IMG/VR virus record: IMGVR_UViG_3300009873_000001
Strand: one strand, 5' to 3'
DNA length: 64,000 bases
From: a virus
Taxonomy: Duplodnaviria; Caudoviricetes
Shown here: positions 1,521 to 63,815 of the stretch, in pieces
Layout: each line of letters starts with the position of its first letter
Numbering within the stretch: position 1 is the first letter of the stretch
Made by a program: the position numbers and the translations under genes
Notes under the pieces: generated by a model
What the model was told of the DNA's origin: nothing
The model's input: the letters and a program-made list of their open reading frames with translations, nothing else
The model's database searches: none

Positions 1521-2114
1521 GTGCCCATGCCTCGCGCGGTTGGTGAGTCGGTGCCACCTTGTCCGCATGGCTACTGGGAACATAGCCAGCTCAACCGCTG
1601 CCCATGGTGCCACGGACGCGACGCTCACAACGCGGAGGCCGTGCCGGTGGCGAGCGGCCCTGGCAACGGCTGGCTGCTCAAGCGCGGCGATCCGATCTGC
1701 GTGGGCTGCGGCGGTCCTGGCTGTGCCGGCTGGGGCCTGCTGCCTTCAGGCGCTGAGTCGTGGACGCCCGAGCAGCACCACGAGTACCGACAGAGCCAGG
1801 TGCTCTGCTATGGCTGCTCTGTGAACGGGCTAAGAATGCCGATCCGGGAGGTCGAGCGCCACTCGCCAGCTCCCGGCATGAAGGGCGTGCGGGTCGTCGA
1901 ATCCGGCGGCGAGACCTATTGGCAGTGTGAGACGTGTTGGCGGTGGGGCCGCCCGCGCTGGGCGCACGCCTGCGGGTCGGGTGGCAACTGGCACAAGACC
2001 GTGCGTGAGCTCGAAGAGGGCGCCAGCCGTGGTGTGGCGCCCGCGCGGGTCTTCGCTACCGCTCCCGTGATCACGCAGCCGTTGCCGTTCGAGCCTGGCA
2101 ACGAGCAGTTCTAA
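1521..2114 (+). CDS. Cys-rich hypothetical protein
   Basis: GGAGG RBS before GTG 1521; several CxxC pairs; TAATG overlap with the next gene. Confidence 0.6.
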   Translation: MPMPRAVGESVPPCPHGYWEHSQLNRCPWCHGRDAHNAEAVPVASGPGNGWLLKRGDPICVGCGGPGCAGWGLLPSGAESWTPEQHHEYRQSQVLCYGCSVNGLRMPIREVERHSPAPGMKGVRVVESGGETYWQCETCWRWGRPRWAHACGSGGNWHKTVRELEEGASRGVAPARVFATAPVITQPLPFEPGNEQF

Positions 2115-2929
2115 TGGCCGATCAGCACCTACGCCGCCTCGAGCGCGATCAGGCCGGCTGGCGCGAGCAGATCGCCGCGGGAAGGCGGGCCGGGAAGTGG
2201 GCGCTCGCACAGTGTGCGGCCGGCCGGTTCGCACTTGAAGGACAGCGCGTCAAGTCAGACTGCCGGGTCGACTACGATCTCGTTCAGGCCTGGGCTCTTG
2301 ATCTGCCTGGAGCAGCGACTGCAATACGGGAGTTCCGCCCGCACATTGCCGCCGACAGATCAGACCCCAACGAGTCGCGGTGGTTGGTGGTGTGGGCTGC
2401 CGGAACGCCGCACGCGAACGCCGGCCCAGCGCACCTCCACGAATCGTCGCTCATGATCCTCAACCCTGAAGGCGCGGCGACGGCGGTAAGTATTGAGTCA
2501 TGTCTGGGGCCGACACGGGCCTGGGATTCCACCGAAGGCGGGCACAGGTTCTGCAGGTTTGTTGGCTATGCGATCGACGGGCGCCGAGACGACAGGGCTC
2601 CAAGGCTCTGGGGTGGCGCGTGCGGCGGACACCACCCGACCATGCCAGCCATGCAAGGCCACCATTACGACAGGCACCCGGAGGGCTGCAATGCCCCGTT
2701 CGGTTCGTTGTGCTGGACAGAGCTCAAACGCCTGCACGGGTTGGTTATGACGCTGGGGCGCCTGCCGAGTCGTGAAGAGTACATGACCGCCGCAGAGAAA
2801 GAGCCAAAAGGTGCGCAGGTCAGGACAGTCCTGGCGTCTGGTCGGCTGGCGGCCCCTCGTCAGAGGCGATCCCTTCCGCGCATTCCACCCACGTCGCTCA
2901 CGAGCGCTAGCTTCAGGTCCGGGCGGTGA
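2114..2929 (+). CDS. hypothetical protein with MAD-x-x-LRRLER leader
   Basis: Starts MADQHLRRLERD; translationally coupled to the upstream gene. Confidence 0.7.
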   Translation: MADQHLRRLERDQAGWREQIAAGRRAGKWALAQCAAGRFALEGQRVKSDCRVDYDLVQAWALDLPGAATAIREFRPHIAADRSDPNESRWLVVWAAGTPHANAGPAHLHESSLMILNPEGAATAVSIESCLGPTRAWDSTEGGHRFCRFVGYAIDGRRDDRAPRLWGGACGGHHPTMPAMQGHHYDRHPEGCNAPFGSLCWTELKRLHGLVMTLGRLPSREEYMTAAEKEPKGAQVRTVLASGRLAAPRQRRSLPRIPPTSLTSASFRSGR

Positions 2930-2965
2930 CCTAGCTGTCAGTTCGTTTTGATAGATTGTCGCTCG

Positions 2966-3823
2966 GTGAGCGACGCCCAACTCAGAGAAGTAGAGCGAGA
3001 AGTCGAAGCGCTGCCCGAGGCGCTTCAGCGCTATCGCGCGCAGTTGCTCAGGAGCTGCTCGTTCCTGGAGTGCTGGCTGTGCGGCACGCTCGTGCCCGAG
3101 CCGCTCATGTCGGACCACGACAAGGTCTGCAGAGTTCAGTCGTTGCCGAACAGGAATCTTCAAGGACAGCCCTTTGGAACCTTCACCTCGTTTCAACCTG
3201 TTCAGCATGCCCAGCCAGTGTCAGGCGGCCATGTAGTTCCGCAGCCGCGTCAATTTGGCGCCCGGCCGCGACGCGAGCCGCTCTATGACACGGTGTCCTT
3301 TACTGGCAGCATTTGCTGTAGGCCGCGCAAGACGATCTTCTACATTCGCGGCGCGCTCGACAGCACTAGGACAGTTTGTCAGTTTCTTGGGCCAGCCAGA
3401 GACGCAAAGGACTCTTGGCTGACGAACATTCCAGGCAGCGGAACCTGGCTCCCTCCAAGCCATGCGTTCTTCTGGTATCGAACGACATTGGCCCCAGACG
3501 TTGGCCAAGACGTCGGGTCCGTCCTGAGCGTGTGGCGCAACGGGCGGCTTCGATTTCAACACCAACAGACTGAACTGCTCGAATGGCCGTGCATGGCGAT
3601 CATGACCGATCCCAAGTCCCTGCCCAAGCTCGAGACCGGCGAGTTGGTCGGCTTGGCTAGCGTCAGGCCGCGGGCTGACGTCACAATCGCCGGCCAGCCA
3701 GTTCAGATCCACGGGCAGGAGAGGATCGAGTTCGCACTCGACGTGCCGGTGCCGCCGGCCAATCCGGTCAAGTTCACGGTTCTCATGTACGGCATGCACT
3801 TGAGACCGATCGCTGGAGACTAG
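2966..3823 (+). CDS. hypothetical protein: MSD-x-x-LRExER leader, Zn-finger and possible jelly-roll capsid-like C-terminal domain
   Basis: GTG 2966 gives MSDAQLREVERE; CWLC...HDKVC; C-terminal EPLYDT...LTNIPGSGTWLP...F...VLMYGMHLRP with beta-strand pattern. Confidence 0.55.
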   Translation: MSDAQLREVEREVEALPEALQRYRAQLLRSCSFLECWLCGTLVPEPLMSDHDKVCRVQSLPNRNLQGQPFGTFTSFQPVQHAQPVSGGHVVPQPRQFGARPRREPLYDTVSFTGSICCRPRKTIFYIRGALDSTRTVCQFLGPARDAKDSWLTNIPGSGTWLPPSHAFFWYRTTLAPDVGQDVGSVLSVWRNGRLRFQHQQTELLEWPCMAIMTDPKSLPKLETGELVGLASVRPRADVTIAGQPVQIHGQERIEFALDVPVPPANPVKFTVLMYGMHLRPIAGD

Positions 3824-3825
3824 AC

Positions 3826-5535: not shown

Positions 5536-5538
5536 CGC

Positions 5539-5736: not shown

Positions 5737-5743
5737 GGCACGC

Positions 5744-8430: not shown

Positions 8431-8438
8431 GGAGAAGC

Positions 8439-9746: not shown

Positions 9747-9767
9747 GAGTCACCGCAGGTGAGAAGC

Positions 9768-10531: not shown

Positions 10532-11887
<1,356 letters not shown>

Positions 11888-13809: not shown

Positions 13810-13821
13810 AAGGCGCAGAGT

Positions 13822-14793
13822 ATGGCTGGCGAGAACTACTACAAGAACATTCGCGGCCTCGTCGGAACCGATTTTCGCATTGCTGCAGCCGCGCCCGCCG
13901 CTACGGCCAAGACATTCGGCGACGACGAAGGCACGGCAATCGAGCTCACGAGCGGGGCCTTCACGATCTTACGAGTTGAAGAGCCGCGCTTCCAGAACGG
14001 AGCGAACTTCGACCTGGTCAACAAGTTGGCCGCGCCTGGCGTGGCGTTGCTCGGGGATATCGGCTATCTCAGTGCTCCGTTCGCCGATCCGTCGATTACG
14101 AATCCGTGCGACGGGATCCTGTTCGGAGCCGTGCCTGGACTAGAAGTCGGGGCTGGCGTGCCGGTGTTTGCTGTGGCCGACATGATGGACGCGGTCAGCG
14201 GACCGTTCACGAGACTGACCTGCAGTGCGGCTGCCAGCAACTGGTTCGGCATTCGAGACACGCTCGGTCTCACGAATAACTTCGTGCGTGGGTTCACGCC
14301 GCGCCAGGCGATCATGAACATGCGCCTGGCTGTGCCGGACTATTCGAGCCTTTCGTTCTTCGTAGGTGGATTCGAGGGGGCAAGCGCTGCTCTATCCTCC
14401 GGCGCTGACCCCACGGCAGCCGGGCTTACCGGGGCTGCGGCCTTTGTCAAACTCGACACCGACGCCAACTGGAACGCGTTCGTCAGACTGCCTGGGTCGG
14501 CAGTGCCAACCAAAATTGACCTGGGCGTCGCGGCCGGAGCAGGGACGGTGTACATCTTCTTGCTTGAGTGCCTTCTGGCAACCGGAGGGGCTGGCAGCAG
14601 CGGAGACGTGCGATTCTCGATCTACAACCTCACAGGATTCACGCTTCTCGGTCAGACCACGATCAGCGGCTTCCCAGCCTTTTCGATTTCCAACTATCTG
14701 TTCACCGCGGGCGCCTTCACGGCCACAGCCGCCTCGCGCTCCATGGACGTCTACAACGCCATGGTCGTGCAGCAGAACAGCTTCGACGCCTAG
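13822..14793 (+). CDS. beta-rich putative fibre protein C1
   Basis: Paralog of 18517-19461 (VGAGVPVF, SFFxGGF, AFVKL..D.NWNAFVRL.GSAVPTKID). Confidence 0.75.
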   Translation: MAGENYYKNIRGLVGTDFRIAAAAPAATAKTFGDDEGTAIELTSGAFTILRVEEPRFQNGANFDLVNKLAAPGVALLGDIGYLSAPFADPSITNPCDGILFGAVPGLEVGAGVPVFAVADMMDAVSGPFTRLTCSAAASNWFGIRDTLGLTNNFVRGFTPRQAIMNMRLAVPDYSSLSFFVGGFEGASAALSSGADPTAAGLTGAAAFVKLDTDANWNAFVRLPGSAVPTKIDLGVAAGAGTVYIFLLECLLATGGAGSSGDVRFSIYNLTGFTLLGQTTISGFPAFSISNYLFTAGAFTATAASRSMDVYNAMVVQQNSFDA

Positions 14794-16484
14794 TTCCCGG
14801 TCAGGCCAGCCGCCGTCAGGCCGTCGGCCTGCGCCAGCTCGCGCAGCCAGGCTGGAAACGGCTGAAGCGCCTGCATGAAGCCCTCGGGCGTGGAGTTCAG
14901 CGCGCGCTGCCGGTAGTCGGCCAACTCGAAGGCAGATACACCCGCGTCACCAGGCCTGGCGGCAAGAATCAACTGCCTGAGTTCATACATGGTCTTGTAG
15001 GCCTTGTGGATTCTGCCTGGCGATCCGCCGTGAACGTCGCTCAACAACTTGTCTGCTGGCTTGAGGTCTAGATATTGACGGTGATTGATCCTGGCCTCAA
15101 GTAAGTCAGCAAGGCTGGCAAGTGACCCTGGAGCCTCCGGGGCCGGCCATGAATTCTCGCCCCAGCGAACGTGCATGTACGAATTGATCACGACAGGGGG
15201 AGCCTCGCCGGCCTTGACGAGCCACTCCAAGTCAGCGCGGGCAGCTGGATCTTCGAGTTTGGCTGGAACGTACAGCCTGATCAGGCGCGCGACCTTGTTC
15301 TGCGGGTCTAGTTCCACAGCGCGGTCCAGCGGGGGCAAGGACTCCTCCATCTTGCCGAGATCCTGCAGCGCCCCGGCCTTGACAATCAAGGCGCTGACGT
15401 AGTCCGGCTCGAGTTTCAACGCGTCCTCAGCCCTTTCGAGCAGCACACGCGCGAGATCCGGCGAAGCGGTCCAACCGTAAACCCGTTCCTCCATGCGTTC
15501 AGGGATCAGAATCCTGGCTTGCTCGGCTGGGCTCCCGGAGAGCGGCTCCTCGAGCGAACGCTCGGGCTTGAACGCCAGTAGCGCGGCGGCAGCCGCCACG
15601 GTCACTGCGAGCGCGACGAGGAACGCTGGGCGGGCCGGGCGGCGGACATCCGGATCGCGACGCGGCGCCGAGGCAGGTGCAGCCAACGCCTCCGCCAGCT
15701 CTTCGGCGCTCTGCCACCGCCTCGCCGGCTCCTTCTCCAGGCACTTCAGGATCACCGCCTCCAGCCACTCCGGGATCTCCGGCCTGATCGAGCGCGGCGG
15801 CACCGGCGTGCGGTCTAGCACGCCATCGAGCACCTCGATTCCGCTGTTGCCGCGGAAGGGTAGCTCGCCCGTGACGAGCTGGTAGAGCGTGGCGCCGAGG
15901 CCCCACACGTCGGTCCACGGTCCGATCGCGCGCTTGTCGCCGCGGGCCTGCTCGGGCGCCATGAAGGCCGGGGTGCCCATGATCTCGCCCGTCTGCGAGA
16001 GCGAGCGCGAGGCCTTGAGATCGGTGTTCAGGATCTTCACCAGCCCCAGATCGATCACGACCGGCTGGCCGTCGGGCCGGAGGATCACGTTCGCCGGCTT
16101 CAGGTCGCGGTGAATGATCCCGTGCTCGTGGGCGTGGGTGAGAGCGCTGGCGATCTCGCGCCCGATCTGCGCCACCTGATCGGGCGGGAGCGGCCCGTCG
16201 CGGTCGAGCTTCTGCTTCAGCGACTCACCCGGCACCAGCTCCATGGCCAGCCAGGGCTGACCGCGCGCGTTCACGCCGGCTTCCAGAATCTTGGCGATCC
16301 CGGGGTGATCGAGGGTCTGCCCAGCCCTCAGCTCCTGCTGCCAGCGGCGGACCTCCTCGGGGTCGGCGTTGAAGAGGGTCTTCAGCGCGACCTGCTGGCC
16401 GGCCTGGTCGACGGCCAGGTGGACGACGCCCATGCCGCCGCGGGCGAGCTCACGGAGAGGGCGGTGGGGAAGAGTTTTGATCAC
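14790..16484 (-). CDS. Hanks-type Ser/Thr protein kinase with TM segment and TPR region
   Basis: ARGGMGVV, VALK, HRDLKPANV, DLG, GTPAFMAPE, DVWGLG; hydrophobic segment; GTG 16484 preferred over the long upstream extension. Confidence 0.95.
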   Translation of the reverse strand: MIKTLPHRPLRELARGGMGVVHLAVDQAGQQVALKTLFNADPEEVRRWQQELRAGQTLDHPGIAKILEAGVNARGQPWLAMELVPGESLKQKLDRDGPLPPDQVAQIGREIASALTHAHEHGIIHRDLKPANVILRPDGQPVVIDLGLVKILNTDLKASRSLSQTGEIMGTPAFMAPEQARGDKRAIGPWTDVWGLGATLYQLVTGELPFRGNSGIEVLDGVLDRTPVPPRSIRPEIPEWLEAVILKCLEKEPARRWQSAEELAEALAAPASAPRRDPDVRRPARPAFLVALAVTVAAAAALLAFKPERSLEEPLSGSPAEQARILIPERMEERVYGWTASPDLARVLLERAEDALKLEPDYVSALIVKAGALQDLGKMEESLPPLDRAVELDPQNKVARLIRLYVPAKLEDPAARADLEWLVKAGEAPPVVINSYMHVRWGENSWPAPEAPGSLASLADLLEARINHRQYLDLKPADKLLSDVHGGSPGRIHKAYKTMYELRQLILAARPGDAGVSAFELADYRQRALNSTPEGFMQALQPFPAWLRELAQADGLTAAGLTGN

Positions 16485-16490
16485 ACCCGA

Positions 16491-16529
16491 AGCATAACCA
16501 CTTTTTGCTGTATCCGCAACCTGTTGCGG
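16491..16529 (-). promoter_or_regulatory. sigma70-type promoter for the kinase, with palindrome over the -35
   Basis: TTGCGG-17bp-TATGCT-6nt-GTG on the minus strand; CCGCAAC-CT-GTTGCGG inverted repeat at 16514-16529. Confidence 0.6.
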
Positions 16530-16643
16530 CAGATAACTTTGTGATCCAATTGGCTTTGTGGTCAGGGCTGGCCCGCCGTGGAGAATAGGTACTGAAGGCC
16601 GGCAGCCGGCGCGCGCCACGGGCGCAGATGAGGGGAGGCCAGC

Positions 16644-17573
16644 ATGGTCGCTGAGAACTTTTTCAGGGACTGGCGAGGGACGTCTAGGCCAAGCTTCTCC
16701 CTCATTTTGCCCACAGCCTCTTCGCGTCTCACCGCCTCGGCTGGCGAGCTGTTGGTGGAAACCACAGCCGGAGCCCCGGCCTTCCTTGGATCGGCTGACC
16801 TGGATCTGGGCGCCGGGTTCAACGCAGAGGTTGTGAACAAGTTCTCCAACCGCTTCTATCACTTGCTCGGGCAGTACGGCACGGCCACAGCTCCGTTCTT
16901 CGGAGCGACTGTCGTAGGCGACTCGCTCCTCAAGGCCACGCAGCCTGGGTTCGAGGGCGGCGCAGGACCGGTGCTCACCGCCACTGACCTGCCAGGCCCG
17001 GCTACGAACCTGTCGCTGGCCGGCATGGCCGGTCGCTGGTACGGAATGCGCAGCATAGTAGCCGTCCCCGGCGTGGGTGAATTCAGCCGAGGAGTCGGCC
17101 TCGCTGGTTTTCTGTACGCCTCAATCAACATACCCACCACTCTCGACCAGTCTTTCTTCATTGGCGGCTTGGAAGACGTGAGCGGCGCGCTGGCCAGCGG
17201 CCCTGACCCGTCAGCCGCGGCCATGAGCGGAGCCATGGCGATCGTGAAGCTAGCCGGGGATCCGACCTGGAACGCCTTCGCTCGAGCTCCGGGTTCGGCC
17301 GTGCCGTCAAAGATTGCGATCGGTCCGGCAGTGGCCACCGGCACGACCTACCAGCTCTTTATTGAGGCCTCTTCTACTTCCGGCGCCGTGCGCTTCACGG
17401 TTCTAGACGCGGCCTCTACAGTCTTGGGGCAAATCGTGTTTCCCGGCGCTGCGTTCGGAGGCGCCGCCAATCACTATCACTTCAACGTCGGCGCGTACAC
17501 AGCGGTAGCTGCAGCGCGCGATTTCGACTTCTTTAGCATGTCGGCCGTGAGGTTCGACAGCTACGACATTTGA
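16644..17573 (+). CDS. beta-rich putative fibre/receptor-binding protein A2
   Basis: GGGAGG RBS; MVAENFF start; paralog of A1. Confidence 0.75.
   Translation: MVAENFFRDWRGTSRPSFSLILPTASSRLTASAGELLVETTAGAPAFLGSADLDLGAGFNAEVVNKFSNRFYHLLGQYGTATAPFFGATVVGDSLLKATQPGFEGGAGPVLTATDLPGPATNLSLAGMAGRWYGMRSIVAVPGVGEFSRGVGLAGFLYASINIPTTLDQSFFIGGLEDVSGALASGPDPSAAAMSGAMAIVKLAGDPTWNAFARAPGSAVPSKIAIGPAVATGTTYQLFIEASSTSGAVRFTVLDAASTVLGQIVFPGAAFGGAANHYHFNVGAYTAVAAARDFDFFSMSAVRFDSYDI
17174..17299 (+). repeat. 126-bp direct repeat, copy 2
   Basis: Near-identical to 12473-12598. Confidence 0.92.
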
Positions 17574-27066: not shown

Positions 27067-28014
27067 TCAACCGCGGCGCATGATCTCGCGCACGAGCGCC
27101 GCGGCCACCGGTGGACAGACAGCGTTTCCGAGCAGCTTCACCGAATCGCAGATCGAGTCCGGCAGCCAGTAGCGGTCTGGGAAGCCCATGCCGCAGCGGT
27201 ACTCGTCGGCCGTCAACATGCGCATTTCGTCGCCGGACTTGCCGCTGCGCACGAGCGCCATTTGGTGCTTGGTGGTCACGGTCGGGAGCGGCCTGTCGAG
27301 AGAACGCCCCGGGTGTCCGGTGACGTGCTGGGTCATGAACATGCCGCGCGGGAATGTCTTTCTGCCCTTGGCAACGCGCGCGCGGACGGCTGGCGGCTTC
27401 GAAGCCACGGGCTCCCAGTTGCCGGCGTTCGAATCGACACAGCTCTTGAAGGCGACGTGCTCGCGGTGGCGCGGGTTCAGGACCAGCGGCTTTCGGCCGC
27501 GGGTCGCCAGTATGAACAGACGCTTTCGGTCCTGCGGCACGCCGAAGTCGGCGGCGTTGAGAACGTGCTCGGAGAGCGAGTAGCCGAGGTCGTTCCAGTA
27601 GCCGCACCAGGCCTTGAAGCCGATCCAGTTCTTGAAGTCGACCACGTTCTCGACCAGCACGAACGGAGGATCGTGGACTTCGGCACAGCTCGGCACGGCC
27701 CAGGCCGTGGCGCGGTATTCGTCGTGGCGCGGAGCCGTGCCGCGGCGCCTGCGCGCGAGCTGCCTGGTCGCGGCCTGGGAGTGGCCCTGGCAAGCGGGAG
27801 ACGCGAGCACTAGGTCCATGCTCGGGACCTCGAACCAGTTGGCCTGGTGCAGATCCTGAACGACGTGCTTGGTCTTGGGGTGGTTTCTCTGGTGAACGTT
27901 GACGGCCAGCGCCCAGTGGTTGGCGGCCCATAGGACTTGAGCACCGGCCTGCTCGGCGCCCTCAGAAAACCCGCCCAGGCCAGCGAACATGTCGATCGCG
28001 GTGAGTTTGCTCAC
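27067..28014 (-). CDS. DNA (cytosine-5)-methyltransferase, phage type
   Basis: Motif I DMFAGLGG, IV SPAC, VI ENV, VIII QDRKRLF, X LGNAVCP; GTGA overlap start. Confidence 0.93.
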   Translation of the reverse strand: MSKLTAIDMFAGLGGFSEGAEQAGAQVLWAANHWALAVNVHQRNHPKTKHVVQDLHQANWFEVPSMDLVLASPACQGHSQAATRQLARRRRGTAPRHDEYRATAWAVPSCAEVHDPPFVLVENVVDFKNWIGFKAWCGYWNDLGYSLSEHVLNAADFGVPQDRKRLFILATRGRKPLVLNPRHREHVAFKSCVDSNAGNWEPVASKPPAVRARVAKGRKTFPRGMFMTQHVTGHPGRSLDRPLPTVTTKHQMALVRSGKSGDEMRMLTADEYRCGMGFPDRYWLPDSICDSVKLLGNAVCPPVAAALVREIMRRG

Positions 28015-28900: not shown

Positions 28901-29197
28901 CTACTCCTCGCGGACGACGCACACGAGGTCGCCCTCGCGGAGGAGAATCAGGTTCTCGTCGTTGACCTTGATATCGGTCCCGGCGTACTTGCTGTAGACC
29001 ACCACGTCGTCCTTCTTCACCGAAACCGGGACTCGCTCGCCGTTCTCTCTCTTGCCTGGCCCGACGGCCAGGATCTGGCCTCTGACCGGCTTTTCCTTGG
29101 CGTTTTCTGGCAGGTGAATGCCGCCCCTGGTCACGCCCGAGTCTTCGATCGGCCTCACCAGCACGCGGTCGTCCAGGGGCTCGACGACGATTCCCAT
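28901..29197 (-). CDS. groES: co-chaperonin GroES (Cpn10)
   Basis: PLDDRVLV, mobile loop TRGGIHLPENAKEKP, AVGPG, YSKYAGT; GAGGAG RBS. Confidence 0.97.
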   Translation of the reverse strand: MGIVVEPLDDRVLVRPIEDSGVTRGGIHLPENAKEKPVRGQILAVGPGKRENGERVPVSVKKDDVVVYSKYAGTDIKVNDENLILLREGDLVCVVREE

Positions 29198-36788: not shown

Positions 36789-38309
36789 ATGCCTGGCCCA
36801 ATGTTTGAGTTCTTCCCGTTCTCTGGCGCGACGCCCGGTCCGACTGGCCCCACAGGCTCAGCTGGCTCTTCCGGCCCTACAGGACCAGCAGGCGGGCCGA
36901 CTGGCCCAGCAGGGCCAGCTGGACCGACCGGGCCAGCTGGCGGCCCGACCGGAGCCACCGGCGCTTCAGGAACGCCTGGACCGACAGGTCCGCCGGGCGG
37001 CCCGACAGGCCCGGCAGGCCCGACGGGACCCCCTGGAGCGGACGGCGCACAGGGGCCTGCCGGACCCGCTGGCCCTTCAGGCACAGACGGGCAGACTGGT
37101 TCAACTGGCGCCACGGGCTCTGTAGGGCCAGCTCTGGCTTCGCGCAGAACCTTCTCGCCTACACGCCTCGTGGCCGAGGGTGCCTCCATTCCAGCCACGC
37201 CTAGCTCCGTGCTCAACCTGGCCGACCTGAGCAACCGCGACCCGTGGGTCAATCTCGACGAGGTCTATTCCCTGTCGCGATTCGATCTGGTCGTAGCCAC
37301 CGAAGAAGGCTCGGTCACTCGCTATCCAGGTCTGAGCTTCGCCTCTCGAGTTGCTCTTCTGGCTTGGCTGAACGCAAACGTCCCCTCTGACGGCAGCGCC
37401 TTCCTGGCCTCGGCGACCATGACGGCCTGGGACGAAGTCGACCAGTCCATGCCGCCAGTCACCAAGGTGTGGGGCAAGAACGGCGCGCTGTCTCGCCTCA
37501 GAAAGAACGACTTCTACAAGAGCCCCAGCCGCGGTTATGTCGAGCTAAACTCCTGGCCTGATCTCGACGTCTTCCTTGCCGCGGCCTGGGAGGCGGTCTG
37601 GCCCGGCGACCCGCTGCCCTCTCCGCTCACGCCTGACGTCCGAGCTGCGTTCTGGTGGGCCAAGAACCGCCGGAACCTGTACGAGATCGAGAAGAGCTTC
37701 GGAATTCAACCGTCTTTCGGCAGAACGTCCCGCGCTGGTGCCGGCGGTCCGTTCGGACCTACCGGCACAGGTTTCAGCTGGGCCTATCAGTCGAGTGGAG
37801 ATCCGGCATACGGGATCGTCGATTCTTCCGGCGGCGGGTTTGTACAGGTTCTTCCGCTATCTCAGTTCAGGAGAGACAACCGAAAGATCTCTGACGCCGG
37901 CCGCAGCGCGGTGTTTCTGGCGCCCATTCAAGGCGGCGTGAACGAACGCGCGGTGTGGATCAAGCCGGTGGGGATCGACCAGATTTACCTCTCGTGGTTC
38001 GACCCGACGCTCTATCGAGCAGAGGCCATTGTCACGCCCAACATAGACGGCAAGCGCGAAGCGCGCGTCCTCACAGCCTCTCGTTCGCCGTCCGTGGTTC
38101 GGGACGCCTCCGGCGCCTTCACCAAGGATCAGTGGTATCGGGGCCAGCAAATTTCTGTTTCGCAGGGCGGGCACCGCCACGGGCCTGGGCGCTGCCACTT
38201 CTACCTGCGCGAGCTGGCCACGGGCAAGGTGAGCGAGCTCAGCACGGCCAGGGTCGAGTACCTCGACGACCGAACCCTGTCCGCCGGTATGGCACGCGTG
38301 GTAAGCTAA
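36789..38309 (+). CDS. second collagen-like fibre protein with large C-terminal domain
   Basis: [11 protein letters not shown] start; GPT/GPA triplets; about 390-aa non-collagen C-terminus. Confidence 0.9.
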
Positions 38310-38456: not shown

Positions 38457-40846
38457 TTCAGATGACGCCGGCCAATGCTCAGGACAGAACGTCCTCGTCA
38501 CCACGCCCGGCGCCGCTCTCGCCACAATCACGTCCCTCTCTTCAACGAACCGCCCTATCCGCGGAACTGCGTCGAGCACGCTGGGGTCGTGTCCAGCTTC
38601 GCGAATGGCGTCCGTTGCAGCAGCGCGAATCAGCGAGAAGACCTCCGGTCCAGAGTCGCGAGCCAGCTTCGGATTACGGCTCGCGAGGCAGCTCTGGCAG
38701 AGGCGGCTGTGCGGATAGCCTACCGCCATGAACCTGAGCAAGCGGACCGGCGAAGCCGGGAGCGGCGCCTCCCGGCCGCAGAGCGTGCCGAACACCGGAA
38801 TCGTCGGCGGGCTGGCGATTGGATCAGTTGCTTGAGCCACTACGCCAGCCACGAGGTGCCACGGGCCAGGCCAGGCCACCTGTAACGCCATACCCTGCTC
38901 GGGAGCCGCCTGAGCATAGCCCACGTCCTCGTCGACGCGGTCTACGAACCCGCCTAGGCAGCGCGGGCAGGCCGAGAGCTTCCACACGTCGCCGAGCATG
39001 GTGAGCCGCATGCCCGTGGCGGCCCGACGCCCGCTCGGCAGGCGCTTCTGGCAACCGCCCACGCAGCCGACCACTTGCAGCCCGGCCAATCTCGCGACGC
39101 GCCTGGCGCGCTCAAGGTCCATGTCCATGGCTAAGCCGGGCGCCCGTTCAGTTGTGCCAAGGCCGGCTTGAGTAGCGTCAGGGCCTCTTCGTAGCGACCG
39201 GACATGACCATGTCGGCCGCGGCACTGTGAACCTGCACGAGAGCGCGCAGAGCCTCGTCGCGGAGTTTGTTCTCCTGACCTGAGCACCACACGCTACCAC
39301 CGGCCTGCGTGCGGTGTCTGCGTCGCGGGTTCAGCGCGCGCCGACAACCAGGGCACTGCAGCTTCTTGAGCACCCTGAACGCCAGCCGGCTAAGATCGAG
39401 CCACTGCCGGCTCACGGAGGCGCCTGCCCCGCCTTGAGAGCCTTGGCGCAACGCGCAAAATGAGCCGACCAGGCCAAGCACAGCACGGCTAGAACCAACA
39501 ACATGAGCGAATGAGCGCTGGAGCGAATGCCGTCTGAGACAACCAAGAGACCCGACCCCAACGAAAAGGCCAATCCGGCTGTATTGAGGTGCTGCGCCCT
39601 GAAGAGCGCTCGCGCCCTAGCTGCGGGAAAAGGCACGCTCCTTGAGCTGGTGTCTGGCAACTTCAATCAGACGCTCCCTGGCTCGCCGCACGTCGAGCTC
39701 GCTCACATTGCCTTCCGCGTCCTGATAAAAACTCTCGCGCGGAACCGCCTCATGATAGCCGGCTTCTCGGACAGAAAGCCCGAGTCCAAGCCGCGGCGAC
39801 CATGTGACCTGGGCTCGCATGCCGTGGATCGTGAGCGACTGATCTTCCCAGGTAGAAGCGCTTTGCCCGCGGAGCTTCATTGCAGTGCGTCTCCAACTTC
39901 ACCATACCAGTCACTTGCAGGAGCGTCCCGAACACTCCGGGCAAGGCGGCAGTGCCTGGTCGAACGTCACGCGCCGATCGCCAGAGATAAAGCGGTTGAA
40001 CAGATCGAGCTGAACAGCCCTGCCGTGACCGAGGCAGACCGGGCACACCTCCCCGGCTCGCCGCCGCTCCGTCAGCAAGCGCTGAGGATCGCTGGCGGCG
40101 TTGCGTGCCGCGGCTCTCAGCCTCGCGTCCACTAGCGTCGCCCTGGCGGCGGCGGCGGTTCTCTGTAGCAGCTGTCGCAGCGAACCTCGCCGGGCCATGT
40201 GCCATGAGTCAGCGGGCGGAAGTTGCATCCGTTGCTCTGGCAGTGCTCGAGGCGGACCTCGATCGCCTTGAGCAAGAAGTCGAGCTTGATCTTCTTCCTG
40301 ACCGCCTCGTCGATCTCGTTCACTCTCCTTCGGTCCCTTCCTCGTTCTTGACCCGCTGATCGGGTGCGCAATAGACCCATTGGCCACCGTCCACCTGCGC
40401 CTCCACGTCATAGTAGAGGTGAGCTCGGACGTTGAATACGGCCTGGCAGTGGCCGCATTCGTAGTTGTCCACGGCCACGTCTATACCGCGCTCGGCCTCC
40501 TCGAATTCGAGCGACTTCTTGCAGCTCGGGCAGAGAAACTCGAGGTCCACGACGGGGCACTTGAGTCTGATCATTTCCGACCACCTAAGAAAGGCCGCGC
40601 CGCCCAGGCGAGTCGCTCTTGTTCGTCACATGCCACACATGAGACAAAAGAACTCCTCGCCTGGACGGTGAGCGGTTCGACTTTTCGGGTGCTAGACCTT
40701 ACTTTCCGCAGCTCGTCCTAGAAACAGACGAGGACTGGCCAGTTCCAGGTCTGTTGCATCGGACGAGCCGCGGTGCCGACAAGGCAGTCGAGTCCTTCTG
40801 TGTCGACCCAGATTGCAGAACTCGACCATGAGCTTCCTCCCGCCGG

Positions 40847-42793: not shown

Positions 42794-43824
42794 GCGCGCG
42801 CCTCAGCAGAGCCTAGTCATACACCGCAAAAACGCGCGACGCAAGATCTCTCACCGGCAGTACAACTCGTCTAGAAATCGCAGGTGCCCGGGACTGCCAG
42901 GCCAGCCCTCAAGCGGACCGGGCGGCTCGCTCGCGCCTTCGGCCTTCTTTGGCTCGTCACTGCCTTCGGGCTCCTCCGGCTCGTCATTCATGCGCCCAGC
43001 ACTCCCCACTGTGCCCACGCACCTTCCAGCAGGTCGGACAGTTGCCGGCCTTGGCCCGCTCTGGCATGGGATTGTCCGGCGACGGGTCGCCGCGCTTCCA
43101 TGGATTCTTGCAGCGCACCCCGTTCGCGTCTATGTCCTTGAACATGCGCCGCCAGTCGGTCACGCCCACCGTCGGCTGTATACACGTCGGGATCCTGAAC
43201 GGCTTCCCCTTGGGTATGTTTCGCTGGTAGCGAACCCTCACCGCGCCGTTCTTCCAACGCTTGACCTCCAGCACGCGGATCACCGGATCGTAGAGGTGGT
43301 CCGTGGTCAGCACCACGCGATCCCCTGGTCGCGGATCGATTCGAGGGTCGCGCCCATGGCGAGTCGACCAGGCAACCCACTGAGCCACGACAGCAGGATC
43401 CTCGCTGTTGAGCTTCTGGGAGCCGAGATCACGGACGGCGCGTCTGAATCTGGCGTCGCTCATCGGGTGTCTATGTTGTGGTCCCAAGGGAGCAATGGCG
43501 GCTCCGGCGTCGGCTTGAGCACTGGCGCCGGCTTGAGCAGCCAGTCCGCCAAGGCCGCCCTAGGAGTTGCTGACAATACGTCGCCGAGTTTGCCTACGAG
43601 TTGCTCGATCCCTCCCTTACCTGCAATGCGCTTCCCGCGCCGCTTGGCTAGAGCCGCGACCTCGTCCCAGCGCAGACTGTACATGTAAATTGACCCGTCA
43701 GGGTAGTTGCCCCACAGATCCACACCAAGTGGGCAGATCTGGGCTGTTCCGAACGGCTCAGCTGACTCCTTGGGCATGTTGACCGGCTGCCGCGGGCGCC
43801 TGGAAGGGCGGTGCTTCTTTTTGC

Positions 43825-44415
43825 TCACTGCTGGACCTTGATCACCAGCTCGTAGTCCTCGCCAGCCGTGCCTTCACGGATCTCGGTTATCGTGCCGAGC
43901 CGCTGCGCCTTGCGCTTCAAGCTCTCGGCGTAGACGCCCTGCACGATCTCGTTCAGCTCCTGCGTGCGCTCCTGGTCGGTGTTTTCGAGCTCGTCGGTGA
44001 CTTCCTTCTGGAGCTGGCTCTTGGCCCGGCGGCGCTCCTCGTCGGTGATCTTGATCTGCTCCTGCAGCTCGGACTGTGCCTTCCTGCGCAGTTCGGCCTC
44101 GTTGTTGTGGTCGCGGTCGCCGCGGACCGACTTGGTCTCGGTGCGTTCGAGCGTGTGCTCCAGCTCGATCTCGGCCTCGACGGTCATGTCTTCGAGGTTG
44201 ATCGTCTCCTTCGCGTTTCCGCGCCGCTTCCGCCAGATCTTCTTGTTCTGGTGGTCCTGCCGCCATCCCTTCTTGGTCAGCTCTCCCTCGAGCACCTCGG
44301 TCTGCTCTTCCACGGAGACGATCGGCGTGAGCACGATCTTCTTCGTGGTCTTGTCCTTGGTGCGGATCTGCTCCCTCACGGAAGCCGACACCTTGATCAC
44401 GTAGCTCTGACTCAT
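43825..44415 (-). CDS. coiled-coil hypothetical protein
   Basis: GGAGG RBS; MSQSYVIKVS...LKRKAQRLG.I.EI. Confidence 0.75.
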   Translation of the reverse strand: MSQSYVIKVSASVREQIRTKDKTTKKIVLTPIVSVEEQTEVLEGELTKKGWRQDHQNKKIWRKRRGNAKETINLEDMTVEAEIELEHTLERTETKSVRGDRDHNNEAELRRKAQSELQEQIKITDEERRRAKSQLQKEVTDELENTDQERTQELNEIVQGVYAESLKRKAQRLGTITEIREGTAGEDYELVIKVQQ

Positions 44416-46039
44416 GGCGCTGGCCTCCTGTTCGTTGTGTAGACGGTCACGTCGTAGTCTACTGCCGTGATCCAGAAGGCGGCGTCGCAGTGAACGCAGA
44501 CCTGCTCGTCTCCTGCGCTCACCGGATCGCCGGTTATGTCGTTTGTTGCCCCGCAAGTTGGGCATTCGATCTCGTAGTCAGGGCCGCTCGTCGTGCCCTG
44601 GTTTGGCTGCGGCACCCGGCTCATGGGCGAACCGCCTCTCCAGGCCGCGTCTCACGGCACCGGTTGCAGTAGTCGTGCTCGGGTTTGCGGCAATGGTCTG
44701 GAATGACCTGGTGGCCGACGTGCTGACAGATCAGTTTGAGTAGCGGCTCGACCAACAGCGTTTCCATGCGCTCGCACTCCGCGTCGGAGGACGTCTGTTC
44801 CGACCAGTCGCCGTCCTGCAAGAACAGCTGCACCGCGGAAGCAAGCTCGTTCCGGTCAGAGATCTTGAGGGTGTCATGACGACCATCAAGCAGGGCCATG
44901 ACCTCGTCAAAGGCGTCAGCGCGGCCTTCATGCATGGCCGCCGCGTGGGCAGCTGGCGCTCTGAGCAACCAAGCCCACAGCATGGACGAGGCTACATTCG
45001 TGGCGGCATACCGCGCCGAGTCGCGCAGCCTCTCTACCACTTGCCTGAGCGGAAGAGCAGTCACGCCTGATCCTTTGCCCGATCTTCCGCCAGCATTGCT
45101 TGCGCGGCTTCGAGCGCGGCTGGGCTCGTGAGGAGGTCCATGGCCTTGCGGATCTCTTCTTTGCTGGGAGAGAACCCGGCCTCCGTCAGCTCCTGGAAGA
45201 TCTTCCTGCCCTCTTCTCCAAGGCCGAAGCAACCACCCTCCACGAGGCCTAGCTCTTTCATGCGCTCTAGGGTTCCGAGGCAGAACACGACCAGCTTGGC
45301 GAGGTGCGGGTCGTCGACGAGATTGAGCACGCTGTTAGGCATGTTCGCCCCTCTCTGACAAGCACACGGTCACGTCTTCAGCCCCTGGCACGGCGATATC
45401 GACGTGCGCGCAGATGTTCAGGCAGCCGCGCTGCGAGCGAAACTTGCCTTCGAGCAGCTTCAACCTGAGCACGGTCGCACCCTGAGCGTTGTGGATCCAG
45501 AGCGTGTGCCCGCCCTCGTCATATTCGAGCTCGGCGACCGGGATCGAAACCCTGCCCTTCATGTTGCAGCCTTCTTCCTCGCCTTGGGGCAACGCTTCTT
45601 GGAGCGCCGCCGCTCCTCGCTCTTGTGCAACAAGTCCATGAGCTGTTTCACGACCTCTACCACGCGCTCGCGGCGCTTCTTGTCCTGCACGAACACCGGC
45701 GGCCCCGTCACGGTCGCCTCGGTCAGCACGGCCTCGAGTGCGGGCAGGGAGGGCGAATTCTTCTCGCGCAGACAGCGCTCAAGCCACTCCAGCTGCGTGT
45801 CGTACGGCCTGGCTGGGGAAGTGTGTTCGTCAGGCGGTCCCTGTCGCAGCAGGGTAGCGAGCCGTTGTGCCTGATCGCCGCGCTGGATCGAGATCCCGAG
45901 TTGCACGTCACCGTCGAGCGTGTGCTCGTAGATCTTGACGTGCGTGTCGGTCCAGCGCACTTCAAGCACGGCGCCGTCGCCGTTGCTGCCCAGCGAGGTA
46001 GGCGGGATAGAGACGGAGTCGTTCATGCGGGCGCCCTGT

Positions 46040-50705: not shown

Positions 50706-51206
50706 CTACTTTCCGTCGTCGTAGGGATCGTCAGGGTCGTACTCGATATCGCACGACCCTTGGTGGCCCGGCTTGCGTTCGCAGTAAGTCGGAATGGACC
50801 TGCCAGGAAGCGGCTTTCGACATTGCGTCTGCGGCTCCGGGGAATGGAACGAACACCCGCCGCCACCAGCGTCACGCGGGCGCCCGATATGTCCGGCTTC
50901 CTTCTCGCAACGCGCGCGGCCCTGCACCTTTCCGCAGCGCACGCCCCACCTGAGCGGCTTCCCCACAGGCTCCCCGATCCCTATGAGCCAGTTCTCCAAG
51001 ACCCGGCACCGCTCATTGCGCTCCGCAAGCGAGGCTGGGAGAGGAACCCCGCCTCCGCGCGAGACCCGCTCGTCGGACTCCACCAGCGGGACGCTCGCCA
51101 GCTCGCGCATGGCCTCCAGGGCCCAGCGCTCTGGGCGCGGCACGAGGTCCATGCCGTAGCGCTCGCGCAGCTCGCGGAGCAGCTCTTGCACGCGCGCGTC
51201 AGCCAC
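50706..51206 (-). CDS. hypothetical protein with MAD leader and repeated C-x-x-x-x-GH-x-G fingers
   Basis: MADARVQELLRE; LVPRP and NWLIGIG shared with 59315 and 59980; CEKEAGHIG, CERKPGHQG. Confidence 0.7.
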   Translation of the reverse strand: MADARVQELLRELRERYGMDLVPRPERWALEAMRELASVPLVESDERVSRGGGVPLPASLAERNERCRVLENWLIGIGEPVGKPLRWGVRCGKVQGRARCEKEAGHIGRPRDAGGGGCSFHSPEPQTQCRKPLPGRSIPTYCERKPGHQGSCDIEYDPDDPYDDGK

Positions 51207-59314: not shown

Positions 59315-59794
59315 GTGGACGAGGCCCTTCAGCGCGCGCTGCGCGAAGCCGAGCGTGCCGGCATTCGACTGATCGAGTATCCGCCAGAGCTGATCATTGA
59401 CATTCTTCGCCAGCGCCACTCGTCGCTGCCGTTACCACTCGGCGCTCCCAACCAATCACACCTCGACTTCATGCCAATCTTCGAGAAGCACGGTCTGGAC
59501 GGATTCCCAGCCTTGATCATGAAGGTGCGCGAGTGGCTAGTCAGCATTGGCGCGGCCCAGCCTGACAGCTGGGCCGAGGTCGACAAGACCTACGCCGCCA
59601 TGAAAGAAACATTCAATAAGTTCATGGGCCCGTACGTCGACGACGAATTCGGACGCCTGGTGCCAGACCACGAAGCAAGCTCGCCCAAGCTGACGCCAGC
59701 GCAAGCTGAACGCAGACTCAATCGCATGCAGGAAGTCTTGGTTCAGCTCATGACACTCGAAGAACTAGAAAGAAGTCGCGGTAATGGCCAATAG
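59315..59794 (+). CDS. hypothetical protein, paralog of 59980-60372
   Basis: MDEALQRALREAERAG...WLVSIGA. Confidence 0.75.
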   Translation: MDEALQRALREAERAGIRLIEYPPELIIDILRQRHSSLPLPLGAPNQSHLDFMPIFEKHGLDGFPALIMKVREWLVSIGAAQPDSWAEVDKTYAAMKETFNKFMGPYVDDEFGRLVPDHEASSPKLTPAQAERRLNRMQEVLVQLMTLEELERSRGNGQ

Positions 59795-59979
59795 CGAAGA
59801 GTTGCTCCAGCTTCTGCGTCAAGGCGTCGAGTTCATGAACGGCTTCGCCAAAGAGGCCGGAGTAGGAAAGATCCCAGCAGCCAAGTTCTGCTACGAGGCC
59901 GGCACCTGGACAGGTCAGGCGCTCAAGGCGATCAGCGAACTTGACGCTGTGGTCAGTGCCGAGCGGTTCAGGGACTGAC

Positions 59980-60372
59980 GTGGACGAGACGCTCCAACGC
60001 GCAATTCGCGAGGCTGAGCGAGCTGGACACCGACTGGTGCCACGCCCGCCTGAGAGCGTACTCACGGCGCTGCGGATCGTAGCGCGCGCGGGCAGCGTAA
60101 TCGCGGAAGCGCTGGTCACCATTGCCATCCAGCTCAAGCGTCCAGGGCAAGACGAGCGCGAGGCGATCTGGAACGAGGCTTGGCGGGGAGGGCTTCGCAA
60201 CTGGCTGGACGCGATCGGCGCCGGATCGCCTGACTGGGACAAGGAAGTTACGTACCCCAAGTCCTCCCACTCTGTCGGGATCGACGACGCCATAGACAGT
60301 GACGAATTCGAAAGGCGCTGGGCCGCACGTCATGGCCACTACCGCGGATACCACCCAGCCCTGGAGGATTGA
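59980..60372 (+). CDS. hypothetical protein, paralog of 59315-59794
   Basis: GTG 59980; MDETLQRAIREAERAG...WLDAIGA. Confidence 0.7.
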   Translation: MDETLQRAIREAERAGHRLVPRPPESVLTALRIVARAGSVIAEALVTIAIQLKRPGQDEREAIWNEAWRGGLRNWLDAIGAGSPDWDKEVTYPKSSHSVGIDDAIDSDEFERRWAARHGHYRGYHPALED

Positions 60373-61077
60373 GTGAGCGACGCCGAGGTCAAGCGCCTGT
60401 TTCGCAACTGGCTCGCCAACCAGACTCCAGAAAACGCCCAGCGCTACGTGACGGCGCTGGCTCGGGCGGGCGGCGACCTGCCCGGACCCGACACCGTCGA
60501 CTTCTTGCTGGAATCGGCGCGCGGAAGGCGCGTGCGTAAGATCGTAGCCGGAGCGCTTAGGCACTTCTTCGGCAAGACGACCAGGGAAGCGCTACGCGGA
60601 CAGCTCGAGCATCTAACCGAGGCACACTTCAACGAAGCCGGCCTTCGAGCAATCTCTAGCCTGAAAGACGTGCCGCCGTTGGGCATGGGCGACCTGCGCG
60701 AGTTTTACCGTGAGATCGGACTGCAGCTGAAGGAAGGCACGCAGCAGCAAGTCAGCGACGACTTGGCCGTCAAGCCTCGGAACGCTAGCGGTTGGAAGAC
60801 CGCGTTCTGTCAGCTCGATTGGGACTACCAGGCGCTCCGCGCCGAGATCGATCAGCTGCACGAAGAGAATCGCGTGCAAGGGCAGACGATCGTTCAGCTG
60901 CGCAATCAGCTCTCCAAAGAGGGCGGCCAAGGCGCCACGGTCGATATCCTCCGCCGCGAGAACGAGCGCTTGACCAAGATCATTCAGGGCCGCTCCTCTG
61001 GCGGCCCCTCAGCTCCAGTGCCCTCGCCATCTGCGCTTTCTCCTTGGGACCCTCTGCCAGCAGACGGCTCTCGGTGA
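60373..61077 (+). CDS. hypothetical protein with MSD leader and coiled coil
   Basis: MSDAEVKRLFRNW...ALARAG; GGAGG RBS. Confidence 0.7.
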   Translation: MSDAEVKRLFRNWLANQTPENAQRYVTALARAGGDLPGPDTVDFLLESARGRRVRKIVAGALRHFFGKTTREALRGQLEHLTEAHFNEAGLRAISSLKDVPPLGMGDLREFYREIGLQLKEGTQQQVSDDLAVKPRNASGWKTAFCQLDWDYQALRAEIDQLHEENRVQGQTIVQLRNQLSKEGGQGATVDILRRENERLTKIIQGRSSGGPSAPVPSPSALSPWDPLPADGSR

Positions 61078-61879: not shown

Positions 61880-62278
61880 GTGACACGCTTGTCAGCAAGC
61901 TAGACAAGGCCAAGAAGAACCTCGAGCGGATCATGGCCGCCGTCAACGAGCTAGACGACTTCGTCTTTGACGCGGACATACAGGCCGGCAAGTGCGTGGA
62001 GTGCAAGAAGTACAAGGCCATGGCGGAAGACGCCGAAGAGGCGGCGCATGAGTGGGAGTTGCAGGCCAGCGGTGATCTGCGCTGGCCTTTGAAGGTCCTC
62101 GTCGAGGGAGGCTATATCTCCTACGAGCGCGGCATGGACCTCGTGACCGACTGGACGCTCGCTGGCCACGAAGCCGCTGCGAGCTCCCTGAAGGACCTGC
62201 TCTGGAAATACGGACCTTCCTTCAAGTCAGAACGAAGGAAGTCAGCGCCAGGCCAGCCGGCTACACTGAATGGGCCGC

Positions 62279-62812
62279 ATGATACCGCTGCTTTGGTGTG
62301 ACGTAGAAACCCTCGGCTTTGATCCGGCTCGCAGCGTCATGCTCGAAGCCGGGTTCACGCTCACCGACGCGGAGCTGAATGAAGTCGCCAGCCTCTGCGT
62401 GCAGCTGAGCTTGGACGGCGTCGACATGTCTTCGCCGGCTCACGACCCCAAGGCGCTGGAGTTCCACAAAACGAACGGCCTACTCGACGAGTGTGGGCGC
62501 GTGGGCATGAAGCTCGGGGACGCCAGCCACACTGTCACGGACTGGATCGAGCGCCGATCGGCCGGCGGTCTGTACATGGCCGGTTCTGGACTCGACTTCG
62601 ACCGGCACTGGTTGAAGCTGTGGCTGCCCAGCGCGGCGCAGCTGTTCCACCGCCGCAACTTCGACCTGAATACGCTCCTGGCTTGGTACGGAGTCACCGA
62701 CAAGGAAATGCTGCCAGACTACGATTACAAGCACCGGGCCATGCTCGACATTCAGCGAGACATAGCACTCACCAAGAAACTGGCCGAGTTCAGCGGCATG
62801 ATGCGCCACTAG
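62279..62812 (+). CDS. oligoribonuclease-like DEDDh 3'-5' exonuclease
   Basis: WCDVETLGFDP (ExoI), GSGLDFDR (ExoII), HRR..D, HRAMLDI (ExoIII). Confidence 0.85.
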   Translation: MIPLLWCDVETLGFDPARSVMLEAGFTLTDAELNEVASLCVQLSLDGVDMSSPAHDPKALEFHKTNGLLDECGRVGMKLGDASHTVTDWIERRSAGGLYMAGSGLDFDRHWLKLWLPSAAQLFHRRNFDLNTLLAWYGVTDKEMLPDYDYKHRAMLDIQRDIALTKKLAEFSGMMRH

Positions 62813-62819
62813 GACAGCC

Positions 62820-63815
62820 ATGGACGCCAGGCTTCGAGAGCTCCACCGCGCCGCCCGGCTCGCTCGCGGCAAAGAGGCCGCCCGCCTCCGCGGCCAGCTC
62901 TGGAGCGCTTTGCTGGCCCTGGGTGTGTGGCCAGAATTCGTTCACCGCACGGCGCTGCAGACGGCCACGGAGGTGGCACAGTTCGCTTCTTGGTTGGGCG
63001 ACCTTGGCGCGCGCGAGTTCCTTCGTTCGGCAGGCGCTCAGGCCGCGTCGATCAAGGTCGGCGTCTCGCACGACTTGTTGCGCGGCGACTCCGTGCCCAC
63101 GCGCTGCAGTATCTGGTGCTGCGAACGAATGCTTCCGGTGATTGAAGAAGCAATGCCGGTAACGGCAGACCGGTCGGCCCCTGGCAGGGCGCTCGCCGAA
63201 TGCATGCAGGTCCAGCTAGCGGCGGAGGCCGAAGTCGAGCTGCGCGTGCCGTCTCGAGGGCGACCGCCGCTCTACAAGGCCGCCAGACACAACTTCGACC
63301 CGCACCTGCCCGGACTTCCTGCCACCACACTCCTCGAGCTGGGGAGCCTGCTGCAGGCAATCGGTTTCGAGGATACTGGATATCCAGGCCGCGCAGAAGA
63401 CCTAATGCACTTCGAGGTGCGGCGCGACTGGCCCAACGCGCTCCCAGGCGATCAGCAAGGCAGGGCGCGATTCACCTATGCTGCCGCCTTCGGGTTGATC
63501 GCGATCATGCGACTCTACGCCAGCGTTTTCAGGCGCAGCACGAGCGCGCCCTCGCACCAGATGGGCTACATTCGCGAATCGAGGCCGTTGCTCGAGCCAG
63601 CCAACATGTTCCTCAAGGTCGTTTTGCCTTTGTGTGAGACCGGGCTCTCTTTGACATATGCCAGCCAATCAGATAGAGCCTGGCTGTCTGCCGGGCGACA
63701 CGCCTGGGTCAGTCACGGCAGCGCAGCTGGCAAGAAACAGGCGCTCAAGGAACTCAAGGCGTTCATGCGGCAGCGATTCGTGCCGTGGGCCACTTCGGAA
63801 GTGGTGCCTGCGTGA
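62820..63815 (+). CDS. hypothetical protein with MDARLREL leader
   Basis: 331-aa ORF with the shared leader motif. Confidence 0.7.
   Translation: MDARLRELHRAARLARGKEAARLRGQLWSALLALGVWPEFVHRTALQTATEVAQFASWLGDLGAREFLRSAGAQAASIKVGVSHDLLRGDSVPTRCSIWCCERMLPVIEEAMPVTADRSAPGRALAECMQVQLAAEAEVELRVPSRGRPPLYKAARHNFDPHLPGLPATTLLELGSLLQAIGFEDTGYPGRAEDLMHFEVRRDWPNALPGDQQGRARFTYAAAFGLIAIMRLYASVFRRSTSAPSHQMGYIRESRPLLEPANMFLKVVLPLCETGLSLTYASQSDRAWLSAGRHAWVSHGSAAGKKQALKELKAFMRQRFVPWATSEVVPA

Follow-up and report, generated by a model that had tools for sequence, protein, structure and literature searches.

Tetratricopeptide (TPR) and Sel1 repeats are built from units of about 34 residues in which two antiparallel helices are joined by a tight, Gly-containing turn, and TPR units serve as protein-binding modules. 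Short N-terminal elements on otherwise unrelated proteins are known from several other settings, including the capsid-targeting sequence of the T4 internal proteins and the propeptides of phiKZ-like inner-body proteins, effector-associated domains (EADs), microcompartment encapsulation peptides, and the TIGR02996 'repeat-companion' domain of Gemmata and other Planctomycetota. Here we analyze a two-helix hairpin leader of about 34 residues in a 64,000-nucleotide stretch of a virus of the Caudoviricetes (IMG/VR record IMGVR_UViG_3300009873_000001; hereafter the window), which is part of a 273,580-bp contig. The hairpin stands at the start of eight genes of the window, and sequence comparison indicates that it is very probably one homologous module common to the virus and to Planctomycetota. 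Each leader is referred to by the window position at which its gene begins (Table 1).

The hairpin shares with TPR and Sel1 repeats its length, its pair of helices and its turn, and a profile search of the PDB returned a sub-threshold likeness to TPR-like repeats, namely the kinesin-light-chain-like entry 4y6w (E = 0.019) and MamA. Its conserved residues (Asp3, Arg7, Arg11, Arg30 and Gly32), however, differ from the TPR signature, and it occurs singly at residue 1 or, where repeated, in copies about 80–250 unrelated residues apart that form no stacked solenoid. Pfam models of the TPR clan gave no match to the viral proteins at E ≤ 1 or E ≤ 10, or to the bacterial proteins at E ≤ 0.1. The T4 and phiKZ-type elements likewise place a common N-terminal tag on unrelated phage proteins, but these tags are either about 10 residues long or propeptides removed by a protease, are virus-specific and act in procapsid assembly, whereas the hairpin is a folded element of 34 residues with thousands of cellular homologues and so is not virus-specific. 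EADs and encapsulation peptides resemble it as small helical N-terminal units on unrelated enzymes, which they couple to a partner or a shell, and two genes upstream of hairpin gene 43463 the virus encodes an FtsH-ternary-system X5 (fvmX5) domain, which belongs to bacterial NTP-dependent conflict systems (43825–44565, minus strand; Pfam PF20003, E = 3e-25). Pfam EAD or related models gave no match to hairpin proteins, no genes for a partner NTPase or a shell were seen beside three bacterial members (a small sample), and encapsulation peptides are single helices of about 18 residues. TIGR02996, finally, is also a short N-terminal domain with many paralogues per genome, is found in the same phylum and is fused to leucine-rich repeats (LRRs) and other repeats. 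It differs in sequence, and in one protein (P0024, locus L115) the hairpin occupies residues 1–40 and is followed by a separate TIGR02996 match at 43–80. The NCBIfam model of TIGR02996 (cut-off 29 bits) matched no hairpin, and in the viral proteins found nothing at E ≤ 1 or E ≤ 10.

The first helix of the leader follows the pattern Met, small residue, invariant Asp, then L-R-x-L-E-R; the turn is usually Gly-Asp, and the second helix closes with R-x-G. In an alignment of the eight window leaders with three from related contigs (profile A1), Asp3 and Arg11, counted from the initiator Met, are invariant, Arg7 is nearly so, and Arg-x-Gly is nearly invariant where helix 2 ends. The leader is not a Sec or Tat signal because it lacks a hydrophobic stretch. 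An earlier note, written from the sequence of the window, had proposed a portable helical hairpin grafted onto unrelated proteins and had named nine N-termini as its carriers. All nine translate at the positions given there, and all-against-all BLASTP detected no similarity among the bodies outside the trio 59315/59980/51206, to which we return below. Two further leaders on the minus strand, 40132 and 43463, were absent from that list and were found by a six-frame motif scan.

At 62–66% G+C the window is rich in Arg, Ala and Leu, and Arg/Glu/Leu-rich amphipathic N-terminal helices might be expected to recur in such a genome (64% G+C) by composition, or to appear at the N-terminus through misplaced starts; the weak matches of the trio and of some leaders would fit such an account. 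We therefore scored each leader against a profile built without it and against 300 composition-matched shuffles. The eight leaders (2114, 2966, 32510, 60373, 62820, 63812, 40132 and 43463) scored 11.4–40.2 bits, compared with 5.1 bits or less for the best of 72 other predicted N-termini of the window, and none of the 300 shuffles of any leader equaled the observed score. Furthermore, the top seven matches of an independent, bacterial-only profile in the six-frame translation of the window (107,413 residues) were seven of the viral leaders, and five of these seven coincide with the first, second or third start codon of an open reading frame (ORF) at least 60 residues long, a category to which 2.8% of positions belong. 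The 32510 leader was matched with E = 6.7e-11 by the bacterial-only profile and with E = 5.5e-10 by a second bacterial profile (A3), which also matched the 60373 (E = 1.3e-4) and 2966 leaders (E = 0.004); the 2114 leader was among the top-ranked matches of the bacterial-only profile, through its first helix only (E = 0.016). That the true starts lie elsewhere is contradicted by orthologues, by the ratio of synonymous to non-synonymous changes and by stop–start overlaps. Chance or composition is therefore a scarcely credible explanation overall; it is ruled out for the eight members and possible for the trio alone.

The earlier note had also suggested that Planctomycetota proteins have similar N-termini, which the searches bear out. 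Of 201 Planctomycetota genomes scanned with the viral profile A1, 28 had full-length matches at E ≤ 0.01 and 11 had them at E ≤ 1e-3, with up to 26 matches in one genome; 151 genomes of a control phylum, which are smaller and probably lower in G+C, gave a single, partial match at E ≤ 1e-3. All 31 bacterial matches inspected start on or beside a start codon, mostly as Met-Ser-Asp. With A3, five Planctomycetota genomes yielded at least 54, 37, 35, 18 and 16 copies on unrelated or paralogous proteins, counts that are lower bounds from 150 scored candidates per genome. A word-indexed search of 5.8 billion proteins returned 42 matches at E ≤ 1e-3, every named one of them from Planctomycetota, and an exhaustive search of 1.84 billion cluster representatives (50% identity) returned 3,359 at the same threshold. 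The bacterial bodies include NUDIX, beta-lactamase-fold and metallophosphoesterase domains, TIGR02996 with LRRs and one large all-helical family, with about fifteen further body clusters among the 42 matches. The copies are often paired or arrayed on one contig, and the carriers sit in ordinary chromosomal neighbourhoods. No model covered the hairpin in Pfam and NCBIfam scans of the viral and bacterial leader proteins (Rnk_N was a weak match below its cut-off, E = 0.022), an ESM Atlas feature search with the leader gave no usable match, a GTDB scan with the internal-module protein of the related contig L001 gave pattern matches and no relative, and literature searches found no paper on the hairpin.

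One bacterial locus (L139, 323–2286) holds two tandem hairpin genes whose first 47 residues are alike except for one, with different bodies; the second is convergent with an Rhs/YD-shell gene (2,460-residue protein) and ends 10 nucleotides from its 3' end. We considered the bacterial paralogues as candidate immunity proteins of Rhs/YD toxins and rejected this, as five hairpin-rich genomes have practically no YD-shell genes and the link at this locus is therefore not general.

Conservation among related viruses further supports the leader as a translated element. Orthologues of the 32510 protein share 66% and 52% of its residues. The leader is kept in contigs L002 and L001, in the latter behind a seven-residue basic prefix. 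The public call for the window gene (P0001) begins at Met38 and leaves the leader out, as does the call in L002; the L002 DNA encodes the leader in frame behind a GTG, and Met38 is a Leu there. Because these public calls miss a GTG-initiated leader, gene callers under-report the hairpin. Between the window and L002, leader codons 2–37 differ by 11 synonymous and 4 non-synonymous changes, compared with 20 synonymous and 34 non-synonymous changes over the next 88 codons of the body. Taken together, these sequence comparisons show that the leader is translated, conserved and under purifying selection in related metagenomic viruses. Two orthologues of the 60373 protein (P0047 and P0048; 72–77% identity) open with the same leader, and in a syntenic locus of 20.6 kb (L140) the counterparts of 60373 (at 10001), 62820 (at 12871) and 63812 (at 14441) all have leaders, as do two further consecutive genes.

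In AlphaFold2 models, the viral 32510 protein forms helices at residues 2–14 and 18–30 and a bacterial member at 3–14 and 18–30; together with the unrelated bodies, this upholds the portable two-helix hairpin that the earlier note had proposed. The predicted local distance difference test (pLDDT) was 94–97 over the first 60 residues of the bacterial member, compared with a mean of 46 for the viral protein, which was modeled from a three-row alignment and whose body is uninterpretable. The full model of the main bacterial family (P0010; pLDDT 80) shows an all-helical domain continuous with the hairpin and found no Foldseek match in the PDB. Its best VIA-align rows were 7jtu_B, one chain of an entry for a type VI deaminase toxin (Z 8.2, root-mean-square deviation 3.6, 142 residues aligned), and, as second candidate, DUF416 (Z 7.3); both scores fall in the range expected of unrelated helical bundles, and neither is a convincing structural relative. 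A complex prediction of two hairpin copies, made without controls, scored 0.04 relative to a mark of 0.42 and weighs neither for nor against dimerization.

The hairpin is not confined to residue 1. Of 141 top cluster representatives analyzed, 91 carry a single copy, placed within the first five residues, and 48 carry 2–6 copies, and in related large viruses 3–6 hairpins lie inside proteins of 500–1,500 residues, separated by mutually unrelated segments. The multi-copy proteins that could be placed lie in virus-like contigs of 85–190 kb whose gene content resembles that of the window (GroES, glycosyltransferase, methylases and dense ORFans), and one of the multi-copy proteins (P0053) was recovered from the sample that yielded the window's virus. 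These related contigs are known from metagenomes and metagenome-assembled genomes (MAGs) only; in several of them hairpins are very abundant, also in operons of large multi-unit ORFan proteins. The claim of an N-terminal leader thus stands for the start of eight window genes and falls as a strict rule, given the internal and prefixed copies in viruses. Because of these copies, an autonomous folding or binding unit is favored over a signal read only at the extreme N-terminus.

The sequence ahead of an internal hairpin usually reads Arg-Arg-Asn followed by Pro, Gly, Ala or Ser, with Arg-Arg-Asn-Pro as the consensus. Of 105 internal hairpins, 66 have this Asn two positions ahead of the invariant Asp, with Pro following it in 49, and a further 26 have it three or four positions ahead; the residue between Asn and Asp is Pro, Gly, Ala or Ser in 96 of the 105. 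In 25 multi-unit proteins the dipeptide Asn-Pro occurs 144 times, which is 3.8-fold the expected 37.7. Short, mostly basic prefixes ending in Asn also precede N-terminal hairpins, in the 63812 gene of the window (six residues ending Arg-Asn, 63812–63829, with the hairpin at 63830–63937), in the L001 orthologue of 32510 (1698–1718) and in three genes each of L140 (13827–13856, 14423–14440 and 15157–15180) and a further contig, L141; the L140 orthologue of 63812 has the same layout of prefix and hairpin as the window gene. Hairpins with an Asn junction away from residue 1 occur likewise in L141, L142 and L143. From sequence alone, two readings of this junction are inseparable: Asn-Pro-Asp-Glu may be a helix-capping box, being a textbook helix N-cap, or it may mark a processing site. 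Self-cleavage at Asn-Pro has precedents in the Asn peptide lyases reovirus mu1 (Asn42-Pro43) and FlhB/YscU (NPTH), which share with the junction the dipeptide and no homology with hairpin proteins.

If the junction were cut, the functional form of the tag could be a free N-terminus of a small residue followed by Asp, generated in cells by Met excision and in viruses also by cutting multi-unit precursors after Arg-Arg-Asn, through Asn-Pro self-cleavage of the Asn-lyase type or by a protease, so that many proteins would be released, each starting with the tag. The regular spacing of Asn and Asp, an intervening residue of the class that permits Met removal, the 88 of 123 counted N-terminal copies that begin Met-Ser-Asp, the Asn-Pro enrichment, the polyprotein-like alternation of hairpins and unrelated bodies, the Asn-ending prefixes and the lyase precedents would all fit such processing. 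We nevertheless regard it as quite improbable, since the same residues make an equally good N-cap box and since L140, where neighbouring units are encoded by separate genes, shows that processing is not required to make them.

We tentatively read the hairpin as a docking or adaptor unit, an interpretation that stops somewhat short of probable. It would fold by itself and serve as a TPR-like protein–protein docking unit, bringing unrelated 'cargo' domains to a single cellular or viral partner or site. Virus and the Planctomycetota lineage that it probably infects would then share a docking code, which the virus could use to place its own proteins or to compete with cellular hairpin carriers. 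The address tag of the earlier note, be it for virion loading, export or oligomerization, is likewise a hypothesis, and the likeness of viral and cellular hairpins may reflect either mimicry or common descent. The autonomy of the unit is suggested by internal copies flanked by mutually unrelated bodies. Several observations weigh against this interpretation and the shared ancestry on which it builds. Taken singly, five of the eight viral leaders match purely bacterial profiles poorly (E = 0.03–0.5), although these same five score 11–23 bits in the leave-one-out test, which none of 300 shuffles reach; no recurrent partner gene was found in the three bacterial neighbourhoods examined; and conservation in the largest bacterial family runs past the hairpin into further helices, so that in this family it may belong to a larger helical domain as its built-in cap and not be a separable tag. 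In addition, the virus is assigned a host through GroES only, which is closest to Phycisphaerales, and the three Phycisphaerales-type genomes tested gave at most one weak hairpin match. The GroES (Cpn10) gene lies at 28901–29197 on the minus strand, and its nearest genomic relatives are from Phycisphaerales MAGs (53–58% identity); identities with hairpin-rich genomes are 46–52% and do not discriminate between hosts.

The continuity of the hairpin with a confidently modeled all-helical domain in the main bacterial family is also what would be expected if its only role were to cap the N-terminus with stable helices, to the benefit of folding or solubility; such a cap would have been spread among paralogues through duplication and recombination and would have no shared partner. 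Its conserved residues suit capping, turn and salt bridges (small residue and Asp at the start, Gly-Asp turn, R-x-G end), as does the N-cap box before internal copies. We consider this unlikely: if the hairpin did no more than cap, its presence on folds as diverse as enzymes, LRRs and a zinc ribbon would be surprising, as would its use 3–6 times between unrelated segments of a single protein and, in 32510 and its L002 orthologue, a conservation exceeding that of the capped body. By analogy with the T4 capsid-targeting sequence, the leader could instead send diverse viral proteins into the assembling particle, which would agree with its N-terminal position on unrelated viral proteins and its abundance in related large virus-like contigs, including the multi-unit ORFan operons. 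Particle loading seems distinctly unlikely, however, because dozens of cellular proteins per genome carry the hairpin in ordinary chromosomal neighbourhoods, and because the leader genes of the window sit amid small, early-type ORFan genes, outside any recognizable structural block. The docking and processing ideas might also be combined into a lineage-wide address tag, a free N-terminus of small residue and Asp produced by Met excision in cells and by precursor cutting after Arg-Arg-Asn in viruses, with the released proteins docking to one receptor and the virus hijacking or jamming an undescribed host sorting or adaptor network. We rate this combination as a long shot; if it were true, the single receptor would serve, for example, particle loading or delivery to one cellular site.

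Whichever reading applies, the hairpin defines a large family, of at least 3,359 clusters at 50% identity, for which we found neither a database model nor a paper. Within one clade of very large uncultured viruses it is the recognizable feature seen most often in the otherwise ORFan proteins. These viruses share it with Planctomycetota, a phylum with poorly understood cell biology and protein sorting. Should the hairpin be a docking or sorting code, it would offer a direct experimental handle on both, in that a tagged reporter should reveal the partner or destination, and the N-termini of thousands of hypothetical proteins would become annotated. Its profile can in any case correct start sites that public calls miss at GTG, as in the 32510 gene.

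Table 1. Hairpin leaders of the window and the trio of paralogues with a similar first helix (LOO, leave-one-out score).
Feature	Position	Strand	Gene	LOO (bits)	Remarks
Canonical hairpin	32510–32617	+	32510–33400 (296 aa)	40.2	GTG start
Hairpin	60373–60489	+	60373–61077 (234 aa)	27.5	Coiled coil in body
Hairpin	2966–3073	+	2966–3823	26.5	GTG start; possible upstream TTG at 2948
Hairpin	40025–40132	−	39911–40132 (73 aa)	23.0	Small zinc-ribbon protein
Hairpin	43353–43463	−	42984–43463	16.4	ATG start
Prefixed hairpin	63812–63937	+	63812, continues beyond window end	15.8	
Divergent hairpin	2114–2221	+	ORF 2114–2929	14.9	ATG start; 0 of 300 shuffles
Divergent hairpin	62820–62927	+	62820–63815	11.4	ATG start; best shuffle 8.1 bits
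Trio paralogue 1	59315–59794	+		7.7	BLASTP E = 1.4e-10 to 59941–60372
Trio paralogue 2	59980–60372	+		8.9	
Trio paralogue 3	50706–51206	−		9.6	BLASTP E = 0.008 to paralogue 2

Seven of the eight leaders begin at the initiator codon and the eighth, 63812, after its prefix. The GTG at 60373 comes straight after the upstream stop codon, the GTG at 63812 and the ATG at 43463 overlap theirs, and at 32510, 59315 and 62820 the open frame has no earlier start codon; judged by this tight operon packing, with ATGA/GTGA-type overlaps or abutments, the start sites are credible. The coding signal of the 2114 ORF is weak. For the 73-residue protein, whose tail gives weak zinc-ribbon Pfam matches, the open frame upstream of the GTG at 40132 has a negative coding score, and this GTG is the likeliest, though not proven, start.

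The three paralogues 59315, 59980 and 51206, which the earlier note had counted among the carriers, could not be demonstrated to bear the same leader. Their leave-one-out scores barely exceed those of shuffles, and profile–profile comparison with A3 in hhalign gave a probability of 4.7%, so that membership is borderline; on these sequence scores, they appear to be a separate small family whose first helix merely resembles the hairpin.

The window is densely packed with small genes, many with GTG starts. Its recognizable genes comprise glycosyl- and methyltransferases, a Ser/Thr kinase, a DNA methylase, GroES and an FHA protein, and the remainder are mostly ORFans. An IMG/VR scan found no relative of the 32510 protein, and tblastn of the 19515 protein found no match among INPHARED (GenBank) phages. 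The Ser/Thr protein kinase (14790–16862, minus strand; phrog_2361, E = 8e-59) shares its viral region with the FHA-domain protein (29294–30031, plus strand) and a cytosine DNA methylase (27067–28071, minus strand), and the related contig L142 likewise has a Cpn10 gene. Between 38310 and 40320, a codon-usage gene caller found no convincing gene except the ORF of the hairpin and zinc ribbon. Two other sets of paralogues were seen, a three-member family at 11925, 13822 and 18517, and a separate pair (10922–11887 and 36789–38309, both plus strand) in which an identical short N-terminus is followed by collagen-like Gly-X-Y repeats.

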